A DNA stretch of 21,083 nt, filler included, from Parachlamydiales bacterium (GTDB taxonomy: Bacteria > Chlamydiota > Chlamydiia > Chlamydiales > Parachlamydiaceae): the NCBI GenBank assembly GCA_020051075.1. It is 2 parts of 2 records of this genome, joined end to end, with 100 filler letters (N's around TTAATTAATTAA, not from the genome) between each part and the next. Parts side by side here need not be neighbours in the genome. Positions count along the whole stretch, not along the records: positions 1 to 13,660 come from JAGVJP010000071.1; 1 more part is not named here. The stretch is one strand, 5' to 3'. Positions 2,847 to 17,171 of the stretch are shown here, one piece after another. The position numbers were made by a program, and so were the translations under genes. Each line of letters opens with the position of its first letter. Positions within the stretch are counted from its first letter, which is position 1. Under the pieces are notes generated by a model. The model worked only from the letters and a program-made list of their open reading frames with translations, was not told the origin of the DNA and ran no database searches.

Positions 2847-3739
2847 AAATGATCCTTTTTTCCCTTCCTGGGAACGAAATAATGAGCCATAAACTCGCTC
2901 AATGTCTAAATGCAAAAATAGGGGAGTTTACCATTCGACAGTTCCCTGACGGAGAAAGTTATGTAAAGATTAATTCAGACGTCAAAGGGAAGTGCGTAGT
3001 CCTTGTCTGCACATTAAATGAACCCGATAACAAACTTCTTCCATTGTACTTTCTTTGTCAAACAGCCAAAGACTTGGGAGCACATTGCACGTGTCTTGTG
3101 ACTCCTTACCTTGCTTATATGAGACAAGACAAACGCTTTCAGCCGGGAGAAGGAATCACATCTACCTATTTTGGCAAATTGATTTCAAGCTTCGCTGACA
3201 GTCTTACAACTGTTGACCCACACTTACATCGCAGAAGATCCCTTTCAGAAGTCTATCGGATACCAAACAAGGTAATCCATGCAGCCGCACATATTTCTCA
3301 ATGGATCAAAACAAACGTAGAGAAGCCAGTCCTTATTGGACCAGACAGTGAAAGCTCGCAATGGGTGTCTGAGGTTGCAAAAAATGCTGGGGCCCCATTT
3401 ACGGTATTGCAAAAAATCCGACATGGCGACCGAGATGTGGAGGTTTCTATACCAGATGTAGACAATTACAAAGATCATACTCCAGTGCTTGTGGATGACA
3501 TTATATCAACTGCTAGAACGATGATCGAGACGGTCAAACATCTGAAAAGAGGAGGGATGAAACCTCCTGTTTGTATTGGCGTGCATGCAGTATTTGCCGG
3601 TAATGCCTATGAAGAATTAATGAACTCCGGAACAGCATCGATTATCACCTGCAATACCATTCCACATAAGAGCAATAAAATTGACCTTAGCGATATTTTG
3701 GCAGAGAACATTCAAGATCTTATGAAACCAAATTCTTGA
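2843..3739 (+). CDS. prs: Ribose-phosphate pyrophosphokinase (PRPP synthetase family)
   Basis: FPDGESYV, PYLAYMRQDKRF, VDPHLH, GPD and VDDIISTARTM motifs. ATGA overlap with the upstream gene. Confidence 0.9.
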   Translation: MKMILFSLPGNEIMSHKLAQCLNAKIGEFTIRQFPDGESYVKINSDVKGKCVVLVCTLNEPDNKLLPLYFLCQTAKDLGAHCTCLVTPYLAYMRQDKRFQPGEGITSTYFGKLISSFADSLTTVDPHLHRRRSLSEVYRIPNKVIHAAAHISQWIKTNVEKPVLIGPDSESSQWVSEVAKNAGAPFTVLQKIRHGDRDVEVSIPDVDNYKDHTPVLVDDIISTARTMIETVKHLKRGGMKPPVCIGVHAVFAGNAYEELMNSGTASIITCNTIPHKSNKIDLSDILAENIQDLMKPNS

Positions 3740-3759
3740 AGTGAATCATAGGAGGACAT

Positions 3760-5076
3760 GTGATCTCAGTCGCTGTTTATGATACGAAATCTTATGATCG
3801 TCAATATCTTGCGCGCAATCCCGAAAGCAAAAATATTACATGGCAGTTCTTTGATTTTCATTTAAATGACAAAACCGCAATGACAGCCAAAGGAACACAA
3901 GCGGTGTGTGTATTTGTGAATGGTGACGACTCCCTCGCGTAAACGCGAAGGCTTCTAGGGCTTTTACAACCCATGCTATCTCGCCCGAGAGCAATATTTG
4001 TCCTAGTTTTTTTCTTTAAGCTTTGGGATTGATGTCTATTAGGTTTGAACACTGAACAGAACCTTACTAGGGAACCCTTAGCCAACCTATAGTGTTTTAC
4101 ACTTAGAGGATTTGCTAAGTAACCGAATACACTTTTCAGATAGCGAGGTTGCTTCAAAGAGCAAGTAGAAGTAGAGTAACAAATAGGCGCATTTCATCCC
4201 AGTCTTAAAAAACTGGGTTTTCATGCGTCCATGGATAAAATAGACGGCGCATGTTTAGAACAACTTTCTCAATTGGGGATCAAGCTCATTCTCTTGCGTT
4301 GTGCAGGTTATAATAATGTTGACCTTGTTGCAGCTAAATCTTTTAATATAACCATCACTCGTGTACCTGCCTATTCACCTCATGCAGTAGCTGAACATGC
4401 ATTTGGATTGTTCTTATGCCTAAATCGGAAAATTCATCGTGCTTATCATCGCGTCCGTGAGCAAAATTTTTCATTAAATGGTTTGCTAGGTTTTGATATT
4501 GAAGGAAAAACAATAGGCATTATCGGAACTGGCAAAATAGGGAAAGTAACAGCTCAAATTGCAAAAGGATTTGAAGTTAAGGTTATTGCATACGATATCT
4601 GTCCTTCTACAGAATTGACAATGACATTTGGGATTCAGTACGTGGATTTACCAACATTGTTTTCGCAAAGCGATATTATTTCCTTACATGCCCCGCTATT
4701 GCCGAATACTTATCGTATGATAAATGCCGCAGCTATTCAGCAAATGAAACAGGGGGTTATTATCATTAATACCAGTCGTGGAAAAGTCATTGAAACGCAA
4801 GCTTTGATTCAAGGATTGAAATCAGGCCATATTGGTGGTGTGGCCTTGGATGTATACGAGGAGGAAGAAAATGTATTTTTTGAAGATTTTTCGGATAAAA
4901 TTTTGCTAGATGATGAATTATCCAGGCTGCTCACATTTCCAAATGTCCTTATTACTGCCCATCAAGGTTTTTTTACTCATGAATCTCTAACAGAAATCGC
5001 TAGGGTAACAATAGAGAATATTCTCCGCCTTGCAAAAAATGAGCCTTTCTTAGCAGAAACGACTCTGACATCCTGA
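3760..5076 (+). pseudogene. ldhA: D-lactate dehydrogenase (2-hydroxyacid dehydrogenase) interrupted by a 312-bp insertion
   Basis: AGGAGG RBS before GTG 3760. Removing 3923-4234 restores ...AVCVFVN-DKIDG... and a 334-aa ORF with LRCAGYNNVD, PAYSPHAVAEH, GTGKIG, INTSRG, DVYEEE and TAHQGFFT. Confidence 0.9.
3923..4234 (-). mobile_element. Non-autonomous IS200/IS605 derivative (PATE-like mini element, 312 bp)
   Basis: Both ends are homologous to the full IS at 8441-10070: GTGAC..CCTCGCG-TAAA-CGCGAAGGCTTCTAGGG at one end and hairpin CCCAGT..ACTGGG-TTTT..GCGTCC at the other. It abuts ATAAA (TTTAT on minus) with no target duplication and has no tnpA or tnpB. Confidence 0.9.
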
Positions 5077-5087
5077 AAAATTTTTGA

Positions 5088-5116
5088 TTGACCAGTTTTA
5101 AAATTGCGTATACGTT
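5088..5116 (+). promoter_or_regulatory. Possible sigma70-type promoter for fasciclin-copA
   Basis: TTGACC-N17-TACGTT upstream of the AAGGA RBS of ORF 5156. Confidence 0.35.
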
Positions 5117-5155
5117 GAGGTTAAGAGTGAATGCCTGTTTTTCTAAAGGAAATAT

Positions 5156-5668
5156 ATGATAAATGTAATTAGAGCTTTTTTTATATTCAGTTCATTATTA
5201 TTCATATATCCTTTGGCAGGAGAATCAAATGAAAAAACTTCTTCAAAGATCGAACATCCAAAAACGGTCCTCGATGAAGTATTGGAAAATCCCTCTTTAA
5301 GCACTCTGGCAAAAATTATCGTTAAGACTAATATTGTCGACATTTTAGAAAGCCAAGGTCCTTTTACTCTGTTTGCTCCCTCAAATGAAGCATTTGCAAA
5401 GTTATCTCCTGGAACCTTGGAAGACTGGCTTAAACCGAGCAATAAAGAAAAACTAACGGCTATTTTAAAATTTCACATAGTCTTGGGTAAAATGACCTTG
5501 GAGGAACTGAAAAAAAATAAAGGATTGATGACTCTTGAAGGCCAGCATGTTAGTATAAAATTCGATAACAACAAAGTGACCATTAACAATGCAGCTGTGG
5601 TCAGATCTAATCTCGAATATCCCAATGGTATCGTCTATATCATCGATCAAATCCTCATTCCAAAATGA
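5156..5668 (+). CDS. Fasciclin (FAS1) domain protein with N-terminal signal/anchor
   Basis: [23 protein letters not shown] and [13 protein letters not shown] motifs. ATGA overlap with copA. Confidence 0.9.
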
Positions 5669-7926: not shown

Positions 7927-8245
7927 TTACAACCATCCTCCGGAAAATCCAGCACGTTGCAAGCCCGTCCTGATATAGGAATAGTTATAGCCGGCTGCGT
8001 CGGGCTCAGGACCTTGCGGGCTATTCCAGAAAAACCGCAGCGTCGCAAGTGTTCGCTCAATAGCGGTGACAACTGAATATGACGCCAACGCAAGTCCAGT
8101 GGCAGCGATGCTTGCAGGCCAATCCGCCGCTGTTTTGTCGATCACGAGGCCATTAGAAGGATTTGTTTCATGTAAAAAATATTCGAATGTTTCGCGCTGC
8201 AGTTTTTCTAGTTCGGCATCAATGGTTGGTTTCTGGGCTGCCCAT
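7927..8245 (-). pseudogene. Internally deleted relic of a glucoamylase-family (GH144-like) glycoside hydrolase
   Basis: Reads ..QKPTIDAELEKLQRETFEYFLHETNPSNGLVIDKTAADWPASIAATGLAL..TLRFFWNSPQGPEPDAAGY fused in frame to the C-terminus YIRTGLQRAGFSGGWL. The ATG at 8245 is out of frame by one extra G. Confidence 0.75.
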
Positions 8246-8253
8246 GTTTTTGT

Positions 8254-8440
8254 TTATCCGCCCAGTCGAGGGATATATGCGGGTGTTTTGGCAGCATAGG
8301 CTTCATATTCCTTTCCAAACTCGGCATACATGTCACTCTCTTCAATTTTAGCAAGCCGAACATACATGATGACTAAAATGGGAAACATGATAAGAGTCAA
8401 TATAGTAGGCCATTGAAGGAGAAAACCGAACATGATCATG
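8254..8440 (-). pseudogene. C-terminal fragment of an isoprenylcysteine carboxylmethyltransferase-family membrane protein
   Basis: MIMFGFLLQWPTILTLIMFPILVIMYVRLAKIEE..FGKEYEAY..TPAYIP. Cut exactly at the IS right end. Confidence 0.8.
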
Positions 8441-8600
8441 GTGACTACTCCCTCGCCTAAAGGCGAAGGCTTCTAGGGGTTATCCCCAGGCCATCTAGTC
8501 CGAGGGCCAAAATATTTTGTGCTGCGTTGAGATCCCTGCTGGTTTGATATCCGCAACGAGCACAGACGTGAGATCTTTCCGAGAGCTCTTTAAGCTCACG
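8421..8600 (-). ncRNA. Predicted TnpB omega-RNA (right-end scaffold plus ~20-nt flank-derived guide CAUGAUCAUGUUCGGUUUUC); 5' boundary approximate
   Basis: Established TnpB biology: the scaffold overlaps the tnpB 3' end and right end, and the guide is the downstream flank. Confidence 0.6.
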
Positions 8601-9578
8601 ATGGCCGCATCTGCTGCAATCTTGTGTCGTATAGGCAGGGTTTACCAATCCTATCTTCCTACCAGCTTCTTCCGCTTTGTAGGAGAGGTATCGGCAAAAC
8701 TGATTCCAACTCACATCGGCAATACTCTTTGCAAAAGAAGAATTGGCTATCATCTCTTTAATTGCCAGATCCTCTACGCAAATGTACTGATACTCATTCA
8801 CTATCTTTTTAGATTCTTTATGACAAAAGTCTTTTCTTCGGTTTCTGATTCGCTCATGAATCTTTGCAATGGCTTTACCCTTTTTGCGTCTTTCAGGAGT
8901 TCCCTTGGCAAGCTTGGCGCATTGCCTCTGAGTCTTAGCTAAAGCCTTTTCTGCCTGCTTGAAAAATCGAGGATTTTCAATCTCTCGTCCATCAGAGAAC
9001 GTGGCAAACTGCTTCAACCCCATATCGATACCTATCGATTTGTCAGCGGAAGGCATAGGCCGAACATCCACTTCACAAGAAAAAGAGACATCCCAACTAC
9101 CAGTTGCATTCTTCTTTAAAGTGCAGGTTTTGATCGTACCCTCGATAGGACGATGATATAGAATACGCAAACGTCCCACTTTGGACAGTTTTAATTCATT
9201 CCCCTCAAGGTTAAAGCCGCTTTGGGGATAGCAAAAGCTATTGTAGCGATGGGTTCCTCTGAATCGGGGAAATCCTGATTTCTGCCCCTGCTTGCACCTT
9301 CTGAAAAATCCATTAAATGCCTTATCCAGCCTGTCAACCACATTCTGAAGGACTTGAGAGTGAACCTTCTCCAACCCTGGACGTTCTATTTTCAATTCTG
9401 GTAAGAACATGAGCTGCTGGATCTTAGTCAGGGAAATTTCCAGTTCATCGTAAGCCAGAATTCTCTGGGATAGCAGCTCGTTATAGAGCCATCGGCATTC
9501 CTGCAGCTGCTCATCTAAAAGGCGAGCTTGCTTCTTGGTGGTTTTGAGGCGAAAGTGAAAGGACTTCCTAACAATCAT
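8457..9578 (-). CDS. tnpB: RNA-guided endonuclease TnpB
   Basis: N-terminal HTH, GFPRFR, RuvC residues in GIDMG / VEDL / RDLNAA, and zinc finger CSRC..CARC. Confidence 0.95.
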   Translation of the reverse strand: MIVRKSFHFRLKTTKKQARLLDEQLQECRWLYNELLSQRILAYDELEISLTKIQQLMFLPELKIERPGLEKVHSQVLQNVVDRLDKAFNGFFRRCKQGQKSGFPRFRGTHRYNSFCYPQSGFNLEGNELKLSKVGRLRILYHRPIEGTIKTCTLKKNATGSWDVSFSCEVDVRPMPSADKSIGIDMGLKQFATFSDGREIENPRFFKQAEKALAKTQRQCAKLAKGTPERRKKGKAIAKIHERIRNRRKDFCHKESKKIVNEYQYICVEDLAIKEMIANSSFAKSIADVSWNQFCRYLSYKAEEAGRKIGLVNPAYTTQDCSRCGHRELKELSERSHVCARCGYQTSRDLNAAQNILALGLDGLGITPRSLRL

Positions 9579-9601
9579 GCGGCCATGTTATCATTTGGTC
9601 T

Positions 9602-10021
9602 ATGAATGAGTCAATTTCTTTAAGAAGAGGAAGAACATGTGTTTTTCTTATGCATGTACATTTGGTCTTTGTAACAAAATACAGACGCAAAATATTCACT
9701 AAACTGATATTACAGGAATTGAGAGAGATTTTTCAAAGTGTTTGTCGAGATTTTGAATCCACACTTGTAGAATTTGAAGGAGAAGGTGATCATGTGCATC
9801 TATTGATTGAATACCCTCCAAAAGTAGCTGTGTCCAAATTAGTTAACAGCCTTAAGGGAGTCTCTTCTCGTCTTATCAGAAAGCAAAATTATCCCACTAT
9901 TCAAAAGGCATTATGGGGAGGCAACCTCTGGTCACCCAGTTATTTTGCTGGAGCTTGCGGAGGTGCACCGCTATCTATTATTCGTCAATACATTGAACAA
10001 CAGCAAACTCCTAGCGATTAG
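9602..10021 (+). CDS. tnpA: IS200/IS605 HUH (Y1) transposase TnpA
   Basis: HLVFVTKYRR, DHVHLL (HUH), LKGVSSR, LWSPSYF and catalytic Tyr in RQYIEQQ. Confidence 0.95.
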   Translation: MNESISLRRGRTCVFLMHVHLVFVTKYRRKIFTKLILQELREIFQSVCRDFESTLVEFEGEGDHVHLLIEYPPKVAVSKLVNSLKGVSSRLIRKQNYPTIQKALWGGNLWSPSYFAGACGGAPLSIIRQYIEQQQTPSD

Positions 10022-10070
10022 GCGCGATTCATCTCGGCCCTAAAAGGCCGAGTTTTCTCGCGTCCGGGGG

Positions 10071-10094
10071 ATAAACTGGGGCTTCATGATCCAC
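10071..10094 (-). pseudogene. N-terminal 8 codons (MDHEAPVY) of the methyltransferase gene disrupted by the IS
   Basis: TAAGGAG RBS overlapping the DUF2933 stop, then GTG GAT CAT GAA GCC CCA GTT TAT, ending at the TTTAT target. Confidence 0.6.
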
Positions 10095-10104
10095 AATGAA
10101 CTCC

Positions 10105-12275: not shown

Positions 12276-12452
12276 TCATTTCTCGCTGCTGATTAGTCCG
12301 GTATTTAAACGCAGCCAATCGTTAATCTTAATTAGAACCTGGGTAATATTTGTTGGTAGATCATGTAAATTTTCTGCACGCAAATTTTTTAGATACTCGC
12401 CCCAGAAATTTTGTACTTGAGACATTTCATCCGCTTCATAAGTAATTGGCAA
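12276..12452 (-). pseudogene. C-terminal gene fragment, possibly from an AbiEii-type nucleotidyltransferase
   Basis: Open frame LPITYEADEMSQVQNFWGEYLKNLRAENLHDLPTNITQVLIKINDWL..*. Family call is from pattern recall only. Confidence 0.3.
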
Positions 12453-12485
12453 GTCCAGTGGCAGCGATGCTCGCAGGCCAATCCG
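12449..12485. repeat. 37-bp direct repeat of 8090-8126 (glucoamylase-family N-terminal piece)
   Basis: GCAAGTCCAGTGGCAGCGATGCTYGCAGGCCAATCCG, 36/37 identical. Confidence 0.9.
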
Positions 12486-12583
12486 ACACCATCGTTTGAT
12501 AAAAAACTTTGTGTTGTTTTATCACCTTGACAATATCGAAATTCAAAGATATACCGATAATAGAACGAATTAAAGGAAAATTT

Positions 12584-13105
12584 ATGATTAATGCGGTTAT
12601 GGTCTTTTTAATATTAAGTTCATTCTTATTTATATATCCTTTAGCAGGAAATTCGAATGAAATTTCCGCTATAGTTGAACATCAAAAAACGATCTTAGAA
12701 GAAATACGACAGAATCCCTCTTTGAGCACCCTGGCAAAAATTATCTCTAATACCTACCTTGTCGATGTTTTAGAAAGCGAAGGTCCCTTTACACTATTTG
12801 CTCCTTCTAATGAAGCGTTTGCTAAATTAGCTCCTGGGACTTTAGATGATTGGCTTAAACCGAACAATAAAGAAATACTTACGAAAATTTTAGAATACCA
12901 TATAGCCTTAGGAAAAATAACTTTGGAAGATTTGAAAAAAAATAGTGGATTAATGACTCTCAGTGGCCAACATGTTAGTATAAAAACCGATAACAACAAC
13001 ATGACAGTTAACAATGTTGATTTGACCAAATCTAATTTTGAATATTCTAATGGTATTGTCTACATCATCGATCAAGTGCTAGTTCCAAAAATGACTGTCA
13101 AATAG
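12584..13105 (+). CDS. Second fasciclin (FAS1) domain protein, paralog of 5156-5668
   Basis: Same TAAAGGAAA RBS context and MIN start, with colinear similarity throughout. ATG 12584 preferred over the ORF-track start. Confidence 0.88.
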   Translation: MINAVMVFLILSSFLFIYPLAGNSNEISAIVEHQKTILEEIRQNPSLSTLAKIISNTYLVDVLESEGPFTLFAPSNEAFAKLAPGTLDDWLKPNNKEILTKILEYHIALGKITLEDLKKNSGLMTLSGQHVSIKTDNNNMTVNNVDLTKSNFEYSNGIVYIIDQVLVPKMTVK

Positions 13106-13161
13106 TAGAATCTTTCTACATTGATTGAAGAATTTTTTTCCTGAGCAGGGATTGACGACAA

Positions 13162-13660
13162 TCACAACCACCCCCCACTAAACCCTGCACGCTGCAACCC
13201 GGTTTTGATATAGGAGCAGTCTCGCATTAATTGCCACATCAGACCACTGTGATAGTTCTCGATCATTAGGACAATCGGTCCTTGATTGAGCCCAAAATGC
13301 CAAGGCGACACCCAGAATCCATAAGGATTACCCGGCTCACCTGGATGTGTTGGGTTGAATGCAGCTTTGAAGCCGTACCGGTTAAATTTCGTCAACTTCG
13401 CCTGGTGAATACAGTAATCTAGCGTGGGAAGTACAATTTCCGGAGCGAAAGGTAAAGATGCAACAACTGCCCAAGGTGCGAGCGTGCCGTCATCGGGTCC
13501 ATATGGCACACCGCGGCCCAGATAATCGTAAAATATGCGCTCAATTCCTCCTAACTTAATTGTGCTTGGGCCTGGGCCCTCGCTCGCAGTAATTCCCCAG
13601 CAGCACCCACAATAATCTGCAAACCTAAGCGGGTTATCAATCGCATAGCGTTGCTGTACA
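13162..13660 (-). CDS. Glucoamylase-family (GH144-like) glycoside hydrolase, 3' part (5' end lost in the gap)
   Basis: Open frame from the gap: VQQRYAIDNP..WGITASEGPG..PDDGTLAPWA..GLNQGPIVLMIENY..GLQRAGFSGGWL. Confidence 0.8.
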
Positions 13661-14058: not shown

Positions 14059-15555
14059 TCAGGGTTGAATGGCTTGAATGAATCTGTTGGACTTACTGCC
14101 CAAAAGATCATAATCTTTGACGATCTCTTCGAAAATCATTTTGAATTCAAGAACAGTCATCCCAGTCGTTCCTTCAGGCCGTTCACCAATTCTCTTCTTA
14201 AATTCAAAGATAAAGAAATTCATCACCCGCTTTTTCAAGCCAGGATCCGAAGGTGTTTTGAATCCGGTACGTTCAGGCTCATCCCTATGCTTTTGAATAA
14301 TCCTTCCCGCTTGACTTAGAGGTCCTAGAATGATGAATGTTTGCTCGGCCGTCGGATTAGTGATAAAAAATTGAACAAACTCTCTGAGTTCCTCGCTTGT
14401 ATAAGCACAATTGTCTGCAAAATGACATGCAGCGTACATTTCACCATCGTTGTTTTGGAATACTCGCTCCATTACTCGTGTTTGATCCTGGTTTGGAAAT
14501 CGAGTCATCATATTTCTAATCATGTGCTCATAGCGAGGGATGATTGCAATAAGCTCTTTCTTGGTAGATAGTCTCTTGAATTCATCGATGTAATAAACAA
14601 ATAGTTTCTTCATATTATCATCCAGATATGTACCTTCTAGATTCTGGCGTCCTGGGAGAAGGTTTGGGGATGATAGAAGCCTTGTAATATGAGGAGCTCT
14701 TTCCTGCAGCAGTTTTAAAACAACACCTTTACGATCCTTATTTTTCGTAGCCTCCAAACCAATGAAGAGATGATTCAATGTTTCCCGTGTACAATGAAGA
14801 GCATTTTCAAGAACATTGTATTGTGCATCCGTTAAGATGTTACTTGCAGTTGGTTGTTGTAAAGTCGGCAACAGTGAAAGTCCTAACGGTTTGCCTGGAC
14901 CACCATTTAAAGAACTCGGAAGAGTCGGAAGAGTCGGTGTGGGAGGATTTACAGTGAGAATCGGCTGCGTAGGGAATTCATCTTCAAATTGTAGAAAATT
15001 GAATGGTTCGTCATCCGGCTGTGCAGGGGATGCATTGTCATCTAAAAATTCGTAAGGAAAGTCGTCGGACTCAGGTGTTCTTGGTGGAAGGAGGAGAGAT
15101 CGTTCACTTGAACCTAGAGACGGATTCAGAGGAACGCCTAGTCCATCACCATTGGGTCGAGGAGGGTTGACTGTTGAATCTTCAATCACGGGCAATGGTG
15201 AAGAACGCCATTGACTCTTGTCATAAATATACCTCAAAATCATCAGAGCTGTCAAAGTCACGATAACAGCCAAGGAGGCGACTCTGCTAAGTCGGGCACC
15301 CAATAAGATTTTTACCTGAATCATATTAAGCAAGAGTGTAAGAGCTCCAAAACCTAGGACCTTTCTTGGCATTCGCTTGCTTTCATCGACAGGTTGAAAA
15401 CGATTTTCAAGTCGATCAATCAACGCAGAAATCGGGTGATAACAGACGATGTTTATAACAGTTGACACTCCAAGTCGACCGATATCATTGAAGTTGAATC
15501 CCCCTCTAAGGAATGATTCTTGCTGGGCCATTGATTGTTTTACAGATCCTAACAT
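14059..15555 (-). CDS. Hypothetical protein, Inc-like (bilobed hydrophobic segment, Pro-rich linker, helical C-domain)
   Basis: 498-aa ORF with hydrophobic hairpin VLGFGALTLLL..VASLAVIVTLTALMILRYIY. Paralog of the next ORF. Confidence 0.7.
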   Translation of the reverse strand: MLGSVKQSMAQQESFLRGGFNFNDIGRLGVSTVINIVCYHPISALIDRLENRFQPVDESKRMPRKVLGFGALTLLLNMIQVKILLGARLSRVASLAVIVTLTALMILRYIYDKSQWRSSPLPVIEDSTVNPPRPNGDGLGVPLNPSLGSSERSLLLPPRTPESDDFPYEFLDDNASPAQPDDEPFNFLQFEDEFPTQPILTVNPPTPTLPTLPSSLNGGPGKPLGLSLLPTLQQPTASNILTDAQYNVLENALHCTRETLNHLFIGLEATKNKDRKGVVLKLLQERAPHITRLLSSPNLLPGRQNLEGTYLDDNMKKLFVYYIDEFKRLSTKKELIAIIPRYEHMIRNMMTRFPNQDQTRVMERVFQNNDGEMYAACHFADNCAYTSEELREFVQFFITNPTAEQTFIILGPLSQAGRIIQKHRDEPERTGFKTPSDPGLKKRVMNFFIFEFKKRIGERPEGTTGMTVLEFKMIFEEIVKDYDLLGSKSNRFIQAIQP

Positions 15556-15662: not shown

Positions 15663-17171
15663 TCAGGGTTGAATGGCTAAGATGAATCTGTAGGATTTAC
15701 CTTGCAAAAGCTTATACTCTTCAACTATGTCTGAGAAAATCTCTTTGAACTCAAGAACAGTCATCTCACGTACAGGACGTTCATATAATCTAGCCTTAAA
15801 AAGTGACTTAATGAAATTCATCACCCGATTTTTCAAGCCTGGATCCAAAGGGGTTTTTCCCAGACGTTCAGGTTCTTCCTGATGCTTTTGGACCATTCTT
15901 CCCGCTTGATGCAGAAGAAATAAGATGGTGGATGCTTGCTCAGGCGTAGGATTAGGAATAAACCATCGAACAAACTCTCTGAGTTCCTCGCTTGAATAGG
16001 CACAATTGTCTGCAAAATGACATGCGGCATAGACTTCGTCATCGTTGTCATTGAATAGTCGATGCATCAAACGATTTTGGTTCTCGTTTGGAAATCGGCG
16101 CATCATCCCTTCAATCCAATATTTAAATCTATTAGGAATGATAGGATTATTATTTGAATTTGAAAAGGGACGCATGGATCTTCCGATTTTAGAAGAGTAA
16201 CGGATGAATTCTTCGATGTAGTAATCAAATAATTTCTTCATATTGTCATCCAGATATGGACCTGCTCGATTCTGGCCTTCCGGAAGAAAATCTCTGAGCG
16301 AAAGTAAGTGTGTGAAATTTACTGCTTGACGACGCAACTCTTTGAAAACAATTGCTTTAAGCACAGGATCTCGATGCGCACTTAAACCAGTAAAGAGAAA
16401 ATTCAGTGTTTCACGTCTACAATGAAGGGTATTTTCAAGAATACGATATTGATCCTCAGTTAAAATGTTCTCTGCTATGGGTTTCTGGAAATTCGGCAAC
16501 AGTGAAAACTTTAAAGGCTGGCCTTGACTCGTATTTAAATGATTTAGGAGAGGTGGATTTGATGATGATGATGCAGTGACAGAGCGATTTGGTACAGGAT
16601 TTGCTGGTCGTGGAGCAGTAGGAATCGGCGGGTAACGATTGTGACTATTTTGGTTTCGATCTGGTCCCAAGCCAGGATTATTCCTTTCTCGGGGAGGATT
16701 AGGGTTGGTGACATGACCGACATCTTGTCCACGATTGGAAGTTGGGAGAGATGGATTGACAGTTGCCTCTTGAGGTCTGGGTGATGGTGAAGAAACCCCT
16801 TTAGTCTTATTATACGCAATTTCTCCATGCAGCTGAACTATATACGCCAAAGTCATCAGAGCTGTCAAAGTCACAATAACTGCTACGTAGGCAACGATGC
16901 CAAGTCGAGCGCCGAATAAGATTTTTACCTGAACAAGATTAAGCAGGATTGTAAGGCTTGAAAAAGCGATCACTTTTCTAGAAAATTTTTTGCTTTCCTC
17001 TATCGTTTGAAGACGATTTTCTAACCGATCAATCAACGAAGAAATCGGGTGATAACAGAGGATATTTATAGAAGACGCCAATCCAAAACGACCGAGGTTA
17101 TTGTAGTTTACCCCTCCTCTAAGAAATGATCCTTGAGATGGGAGAATCGACTGTTGTACAGCTCCTAACAT
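15663..17171 (-). CDS. Hypothetical protein, Inc-like tandem paralog
   Basis: 502-aa ORF sharing the N-terminus (FLRGG..CYHPIS.LIDRLENR) and C-domain (YAACHFADNCAY.SEELREFV..DPGLK.RVMNF..AIQP). Confidence 0.7.
   Translation of the reverse strand: MLGAVQQSILPSQGSFLRGGVNYNNLGRFGLASSINILCYHPISSLIDRLENRLQTIEESKKFSRKVIAFSSLTILLNLVQVKILFGARLGIVAYVAVIVTLTALMTLAYIVQLHGEIAYNKTKGVSSPSPRPQEATVNPSLPTSNRGQDVGHVTNPNPPRERNNPGLGPDRNQNSHNRYPPIPTAPRPANPVPNRSVTASSSSNPPLLNHLNTSQGQPLKFSLLPNFQKPIAENILTEDQYRILENTLHCRRETLNFLFTGLSAHRDPVLKAIVFKELRRQAVNFTHLLSLRDFLPEGQNRAGPYLDDNMKKLFDYYIEEFIRYSSKIGRSMRPFSNSNNNPIIPNRFKYWIEGMMRRFPNENQNRLMHRLFNDNDDEVYAACHFADNCAYSSEELREFVRWFIPNPTPEQASTILFLLHQAGRMVQKHQEEPERLGKTPLDPGLKNRVMNFIKSLFKARLYERPVREMTVLEFKEIFSDIVEEYKLLQGKSYRFILAIQP

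Follow-up and report, generated by a model that had tools for sequence, protein, structure and literature searches.

A 312-bp IS605-type element without a protein gene (3923–4234, minus strand) lies antisense within the D-lactate dehydrogenase gene, ldhA, of a Parachlamydiales bacterium (GenBank assembly GCA_020051075.1), and splits that gene in two. Our account of this PATE-like insert, which we hold to be the probable one, is that it belongs to a long-lived protein-free IS605 lineage and acts as a selfish stand-alone guide-RNA cassette, knocking out ldhA and defending the site with TnpB provided in trans. Coordinates refer throughout to the window, the whole 21,083-nt stretch of DNA that was analysed (two contig parts joined across filler letters).

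The kind of element is already known, and its insertion into ldhA is most likely ordinary transposon damage. The locus does provide a clean natural test case for the role of stand-alone omega-RNAs (a question that the accessible text of a 2023 paper calls open), since the filled allele, empty alleles in circulation and an intact candidate helper IS have all been identified. Gene-less elements here have, in addition, repeatedly placed pseudoknotted leaders before the omega-RNA; were these leaders to stabilize or process that RNA, the making of stand-alone guides would be accounted for, and the leaders might serve as 5′ modules for compact TnpB guides (paired core of 68–71 nt).

The split ldhA gene and the anatomy of its insert

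Ortholog alignment places the 5′ piece of ldhA, comprising its first 54 codons, at 3760–3922 (plus strand); the 3′ piece (4235–5076, plus strand) runs without stop or frameshift in the ORF list and finds its best solved relatives among D-lactate dehydrogenases (E 1e-91). An ATG at 4231, within the left end of the element, starts a 281-aa ldhA frame that has no N-terminus. Excision of 3923–4234 in silico gives an open frame of 334 aa, starting at a GTG (3760) and reading VN|DKID across the joint (the boundary is ambiguous by 1 nt, 3922–4233 being equivalent), and an intact LdhA ortholog in genome G025 has FVND at the joint position and aligns straight across it. This restoration of the frame had been claimed in a first-pass annotation of the region, and it held both when the open frame was recomputed and in near-identical alleles lacking exactly the 312 nt, found in 4/4 independent sequencing runs; two peptides quoted in that annotation are present in the ORF list. 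The filled allele is known from the assembly only, yet it is unlikely to be an assembly artefact, since the ends of the insert coincide exactly with the TAM and TEM; the absence of decay in ldhA argues that the insertion is recent.

Read along the minus strand, the order is TTTAT, the left end with its hairpin, the interior, the right-end hairpin, TCAC and the flank. The TAM TTTAT (4235–4239) is identical at a neighbouring full IS and at all nine aligned complete members of the family. Behind it stands a subterminal hairpin (4198–4217) with AAAA before it (the whole spanning 4198–4221), AAAA being the left guide tetranucleotide expected for a TTTAT target under the pairing rule of IS608 and ISDra2. 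There follow a weak extended −10-like box with TG (4173–4181; 3/6 to TATAAT), two leader modules designated D1 (4086–4133) and D2 (4002–4085), an omega-RNA scaffold of 71 nt (3923–3993) ending in the TEM TCAC (3923–3926), and a predicted guide formed by the 20-nt flank (3903–3922), all on the minus strand; TAM, TCAC end and flank guide had been proposed previously, and each is found in the sequence as described. In keeping with IS200/IS605 elements, insertion has occurred 3′ of a fixed TAM without target duplication and removal restores the site exactly, and subterminal hairpins at both ends (8-bp type, TTTA loop) are accompanied by guide tetranucleotides, as assigned by that pairing rule, and by the TEM.

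The element yielded no tblastn match to TnpA or TnpB, and a 99-aa ORF overlapping it matched no NCBIfam family. A promoter scan found no −35/−10 pair within it; relatives have −10 boxes of 4–6/6 between left end and leader, compared with 3/6 in this copy. A terminator-like left-end hairpin on the plus strand was discarded as being at chance level (1 found, 0.5 expected). The element is single-copy in this assembly, no other part of the genome matches its middle, and plasmid and phage BLAST searches using it as query gave no match.

Structured RNA inside an IS605 element brings to mind the IStrons (group I intron plus IS605/IS607), which in the accessible descriptions likewise have IS605-type ends around a structured RNA and an omega-RNA. 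An insert of that sort would splice out of the ldhA mRNA and leave the gene working, and the register 3922–4233 does have a U before it and a G at its end on the sense strand. We give this reading almost no credence, given that the covarying structure lies on the strand antisense to ldhA, the wrong one for splicing it, that the element strand ends in C where an IStron has a terminal G, and that there is no group I core, Rfam group I introns giving no match at E up to 10 or 5.

A candidate helper and the retained omega-RNA end

Some 4 kb away is a full IS605-type element (8441–10070, minus strand) with divergent genes and the same TAM and TEM, a candidate helper in trans and the only TnpA/TnpB match in the assembly. 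Its tnpB (8457–9578, minus strand) encodes 373 aa with RuvC D/E/D motifs and zinc-finger cysteines, matching the ISDra2 TnpB structure (PDB 8h1j) at E 5e-60, and its tnpA (9602–10021, plus strand) encodes a 139-aa Y1 HUH transposase; the earlier placing of a TnpB gene 4 kb away is borne out, in an element that is intact and shares its TAM and TEM with the small one. Three further left ends of the IS clade, each different, stand at contig ends (G000 C26:1–93, the end of C26 and the end of C20), and more copies are probably unassembled in this genome. The left end at the start of C26 resembles a 258-nt gene-less family. The full IS is itself flanked by a gene start and an apparent C-terminal half in another frame (7930–8440 and 10071–10100, minus strand); the missing middle points to a deletion beside the IS, running between two TTTAT sites. 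We take the interrupted gene to be a probable member of the isoprenylcysteine carboxylmethyltransferase family, behind DUF2933, with the same order in the matched sequence.

The first-pass annotation had regarded the small element as an IS605 derivative with a right end of ~80 nt matching the full IS. That match is present (79.5% over 83 nt, E 1e-12), as are the non-autonomous IS605-type character and the exact boundaries; descent from the neighbouring IS is not supported. We rejected an internal-deletion derivative of 8441–10070, the left ends being identical at 35/49 positions and the scaffolds at 56/71 (71–79%) with an unmatched interior, and the remaining ~190 nt do not come from this IS but recur in other genomes as conserved, structured sequence.

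The scaffold consists of stem 1, stem 2, the right-end hairpin with its UUUA loop (3932–3951) and the TEM TCAC. The loop of stem 1 (3981–3985) pairs with 3925–3929 as a pseudoknot, a helix also picked by an unbiased column-pair scan (stem 1 loop with the five bases preceding the last AC). The 69 right-end matches yielded 38 distinct scaffolds; this pseudoknot is paired at 5/5 positions in 34 of them and at 4/5 in the other four. Covariation shows selection on the predicted 71-nt scaffold, and the earlier claim that the element keeps an omega-RNA end is upheld by the completeness of this scaffold, its intact pseudoknot and the covariation across elements. A TEM-proximal pseudoknot, a terminal hairpin and a guide drawn from the flank are present together, as in a stand-alone omega-RNA.

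Scaffolds with a tnpB match (n = 19) are all 68 nt long, those bearing a leader (n = 12) 71–144 nt, and stem 2 is three nucleotides longer in every leader-bearing scaffold than in the 68-nt form, so that the cognate TnpB may be another one. Six pseudoknot strand combinations occur among the 12 and none of these among the 19; compensation therefore arose either among the gene-less elements or in parents that were not sampled. Since a pseudoknot of the omega-RNA type matters to the RNA and not to TnpA, gene-less elements would appear to have kept a guide-RNA function, unless their parents are unsampled. Long omega scaffolds (108–144 nt; L026, L029, L052, L064, L066) were seen in gene-less elements only and differ from the short ones (68–71 nt, including window 3923–3993) by a block between two similar GAAGCC-like repeats.

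The predicted guide together with TTTAT amounts to the uninterrupted ldhA allele, and among 12,214 TTTAT sites in this genome (G000) no second target has a TAM-adjacent match of more than 6 nt.

The state of the RNA bears on a rival account, in which the family is functional and this copy, inserted once, is poorly transcribed or incompatible with the local TnpA/TnpB, ldhA being simply a new pseudogene. We think such an inert passenger unlikely, though deserving of real weight: a weak promoter box, a single copy, 21–29% divergence from the local IS ends with a longer stem 2, and an element body uncovered in all four examined runs (which has no bearing on expression) are to be set against omega-RNA helices and a pseudoknot that are all intact, with differences from the local scaffold that are compensatory or wobble, against end hairpins that are kept, and against the undecayed ldhA of a recent insertion.

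The guide-RNA cassette that we favour has close counterparts. In the accessible text of Meers et al. (bioRxiv 10.1101/2023.03.14.532601), PATEs often encode omega-RNAs that are acted on in trans, and the PATE-like elements of Geobacillus stearothermophilus described there share with the present one the absence of a protein gene and the retention of both ends with TAM and TEM. Their omega-RNA needs TnpB in trans and TnpA mobilizes them in trans, to which we liken the ldhA insert from its sequence; TTTAT is also given as the TAM of G. stearothermophilus TnpB2. Stand-alone omega-RNAs of OMEGA systems, a similar case of a mobilized omega-RNA without effector or transposase, function in trans according to the available portions of PMC10691335, which call their biological role unknown and mention no leader; here, by contrast, natural samples are seen to contain the empty target allele. 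For the ISDra2 TnpB omega-RNA, the accessible text of PMC10097598 describes, as here, a 5′ loop pseudoknotted with bases next to the guide and, ~20 nt from the end, a terminal hairpin capped by a UUUA tetraloop. That scaffold measures 116 nt versus a paired core of 68–71 nt here, and its 5′ region (−231 to −117) is dispensable tnpB coding sequence; in the present element, by contrast, the 5′ region is conserved and does not code for protein.

Gene-less relatives and the pseudoknotted leader

When 400 genomes of the phylum were searched at the DNA level, 57 showed some match, mostly to the right end; the middle of the element was matched in G357, G363, G237 and G369 and partly in G140. By a pattern for the middle (D2), 12 sites were found in 7/401 genomes; 10 sites in 6 genomes are real, L071 and L078 being set aside as chance, and by this pattern the family is rare (6/401 genomes). 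Metagenome contigs contributed four further copies, two of them repeating known sites, and in a Simkania MAG the right-hand portion is found three times in identical form, at contig ends and next to different flanks. Relatives occur in multiple copies with different flanks, indicating that the family is mobile. Nine complete elements (304–427 nt) were aligned from unrelated sites; TTTAT and TCAC are present in every one, and a match to tnpA or tnpB in none. TnpB matches are found in 4/5 other genomes carrying the family, and G357 (86% complete) has three element copies and no TnpB match.

Between the left end and the scaffold, upstream of the omega-RNA, runs a covarying, pseudoknotted leader of ~130 nt. 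D2 is formed by nested helices crossed by a CUAGU/ACUAG pairing, with an A-rich linker, and resembles an H-type pseudoknot. D1 consists of a closing stem, an invariant GGUU, a 6-bp hairpin with the loop RAAUCCU, and an invariant GUAAA; the end of its loop pairs with a downstream AGG as a second pseudoknot, in which one column covaries. A further pairing between GGUU and the loop (96% paired, no double change) is unproven.

RNAalifold on 10 sequences recovered double-sided changes in 18/43 pairs. For the full pseudoknotted structure in nine elements, 95.3% of 423 cells are paired and 18/47 pairs change on both sides, with 0/500 shuffles as high and 36–49% of cells paired in slid controls; this structure was derived from the same related sequences on which it was scored, and the controls flatter it. 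In 13 D1 sequences (a count leaving out the unparsed G357 and G250 copies) the hairpin is paired in 75/78 cells and each of its six columns shows double changes; the closing stem is paired in 59/65, 0/2000 shuffles being as high. An alignment of 14 D1 sequences has double changes in 8/15 pairs.

A leader model matched 3/151 genomes, namely this one, G090 (nine copies) and G112 (one copy), to which the D1 pattern adds two copies in G398. D1 is present in three other end-types of gene-less element besides the type described here: in G090 with the ends TTTAC...TCAA and TTTAT...TCAA, and in G398 and G112 in elements that end in TCAC but have different left ends and longer RNAs. In G140, a second TnpB clade has a right end similar to that of the TTTAT...TCAA elements.

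No D1 was found in 27 loci with a TnpB match of at least 100 aa, by a descriptor of limited sensitivity that finds family members in 22 loci and misses the G357, G090, G112 and G398 copies. Models R2 and R3 gave nothing convincing in full-length IS loci, R3 being effectively a sequence-profile search that may miss members (one true match, in G250, and two chance matches in 160 genomes). These results weigh upon the suggestion that the leader takes its fold in single-stranded DNA as the element undergoes peel-and-paste transposition, for protein binding or priming, and is not a functional RNA. Elements of this type do move as single strands, and G-U/G-T wobbles fix the strand and not the polymer; we nevertheless judge the suggestion very unlikely, with D1 not found in those 27 tnpB-bearing loci, which transpose with the same ends, with the leader placed between the −10 boxes and the omega-RNA, and with a pseudoknot that has an A-rich linker, a feature typical of RNA.

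Taking the leader as RNA, its conservation and its restriction to gene-less elements lead us to infer that it most likely replaces the tnpB mRNA context, standing in for the absent message by protecting, trimming or otherwise defining the 5′ end of the RNA. A bolder possibility, in our view improbable, is that D1 represents a novel small RNA, either catalytic or nuclease-blocking (such as a self-cleaving ribozyme, or a stop to exonucleases), a portable module which matures the guide without tnpB mRNA and has been swapped between elements of different TnpB clades; a new ribozyme class would matter more, if true, and is the unlikely end of the range.

Neither the element, nor the leader by itself, nor any of 13 related loci gave an Rfam match near the gathering score. 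The best candidate among known riboswitches and ribozymes, PreQ1 (13.1 bits against a gathering score of 39, E 2.2), covered the A-rich tail only and was rejected; twister, HDV-like, glmS, preQ1-I and group I P4/P5 folds are, on informal comparison, unlike the leader in topology or conserved bases. Patterns run against viral contigs gave 0, 0 and 23 matches, the 23 being chance hits in which the two D1 stems do not pair jointly. A loose D1 pattern, run on 401 genomes, matched controls as often as real sequence, only G398 being new and four more G112 matches being chance. The twister ribozyme is, on the accessible text of PMC6154101, also a small fold with one hairpin loop able to make two pseudoknot pairings; the resemblance to D1 is topological only, with no Rfam twister match and no position at which the P1/L1 U-A cleavage site could be placed.

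Stand-alone omega-RNA elements are already published, and the leader is the new part. The titles and abstracts listed by literature searches describe neither a conserved leader in gene-less IS605 elements nor the chlamydial family, and no passage on such leaders was found in the accessible parts of a 2026 review (PMC13565253) and of PMC12558985. The G. stearothermophilus PATEs, as described in the text of their report (Extended Data Fig. 2e aside), differ from the present element in its ~130-nt double-pseudoknot leader.

Some further elements and end fragments were also seen. A second family, about 205–290 nt long (L009, L016, L033, L057, L127, L129, L130), has promoter-like boxes and, by eye, what looks like a single pseudoknot, unlike those of the leader, immediately 5′ of the omega-RNA, with three near-identical copies in G002. 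G090 holds at least 11 decaying gene-less IS605-type elements (L056, L132, L134–L141, L201) of two end types, with D1 common to them, and the strands of the right-end pseudoknot change in step between L132 and L134. At L093 (G357:C1) and L106 (G363:C38), right ends meet head to head in a short palindrome with TCAC at the end of each half, and at L106 a left-end piece adjoins it. At L039 (G145:C26) the same type of left-end hairpin is followed by sequence that resembles, on the opposite strand, an RNA of the IscB/HEARO type.

Empty alleles and the fate of ldhA

Part of the region is present in 20 sequencing runs, four of which, from four studies, were examined. In all four a contig joins 3921 to 4234, omitting exactly 312 nt; the empty ldhA site occurs in natural samples. 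These contigs differ from the present genome by ~1% upstream of the site and by 2–6% downstream (6/622 and 55/967 positions, respectively, in the longest), and they are therefore other strains' alleles and not excision products of this genome. Of the excised junction that the first-pass annotation proposed to look for, the exact joint was found in 4/4 runs, on the alleles of other strains; no excised allele from this population was seen.

The same annotation had portrayed ldhA as reversibly switched by TnpA excision, with TnpB opposing, and this portrayal fares poorly. Excision would restore the frame exactly, and intact helper genes are adjacent; the empty alleles seen, however, carry strain differences, no excised allele was found from this population (source-sample reads were not found, and no run contained half of the region's words), and TnpA re-insertion is not site-addressed, all 12,214 TTTAT sites being open to it. 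Excision reached 0.7% with expressed TnpA in the available text of Meers et al. (bioRxiv 10.1101/2023.03.14.532601), and most relatives lie outside ORFs, only 5/13 rebuilt empty sites having any open frame of 30 or more codons on both sides, with no sign of a host regulatory role. We consider a switch highly improbable. According to the same text excision is scarless, TnpB cuts the donor joint and the filled allele is restored, so that the expected net effect is a lock and not a switch.

For the stand-alone guide-RNA cassette, the course of events may be pictured as follows. TnpA acting in trans would have inserted the element after TTTAT and so split ldhA; the boundaries and the empty alleles are observed. 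In the accessible text of Meers et al. (bioRxiv 10.1101/2023.03.14.532601), one TnpA excised all five IS families tested. From behind the left end, a promoter whose box is weak in this copy would transcribe leader, omega-RNA and flank antisense to ldhA, and the 71-nt scaffold would load TnpB made elsewhere, probably the neighbouring one. The guide would then direct a cut at TTTAT plus empty ldhA, whether the element has been excised or a copy of the mobile region lacking it has come in, and repair templated by the filled copy would, if published TnpB behaviour applies, keep or spread the element. The loss of ldhA is most likely collateral transposon damage, with the gene held off.

The module flanking ldhA matches a Criblamydia plasmid at 85% (genes upstream) and is present at 95–99% in unrelated samples, from which we infer that empty alleles circulate and that the region upstream of and around ldhA is probably mobile. 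Together with the Simkania matches, the match to Criblamydia points to a host within the Chlamydiota. Among the 40 of 62 differences listed, 25 are ldhA allele differences (14 synonymous and 11 non-synonymous, not polarized). Divergence from the alleles of other samples (window 3300–5200) is ~1% near the insertion and 5–7% beyond 4485, a rise that suggests a recombination patch in ldhA.

Past the N gap (~13661), off contig C131, tandem paralogs of ~500 aa with a proline-rich middle lie at 14059–15555 and 15663–17171 (minus strand), the first of which matched no NCBIfam family. Nearer to ldhA, a gene of ~170 aa that we take to be fasciclin-like is present in two copies (5156–5668 and 12509–13105; 78% DNA identity), and fragments of a glucoamylase-like gene are repeated and scattered (7929–8126 and 12449–13220); together, these copies and fragments point to a rearranged mobile region.
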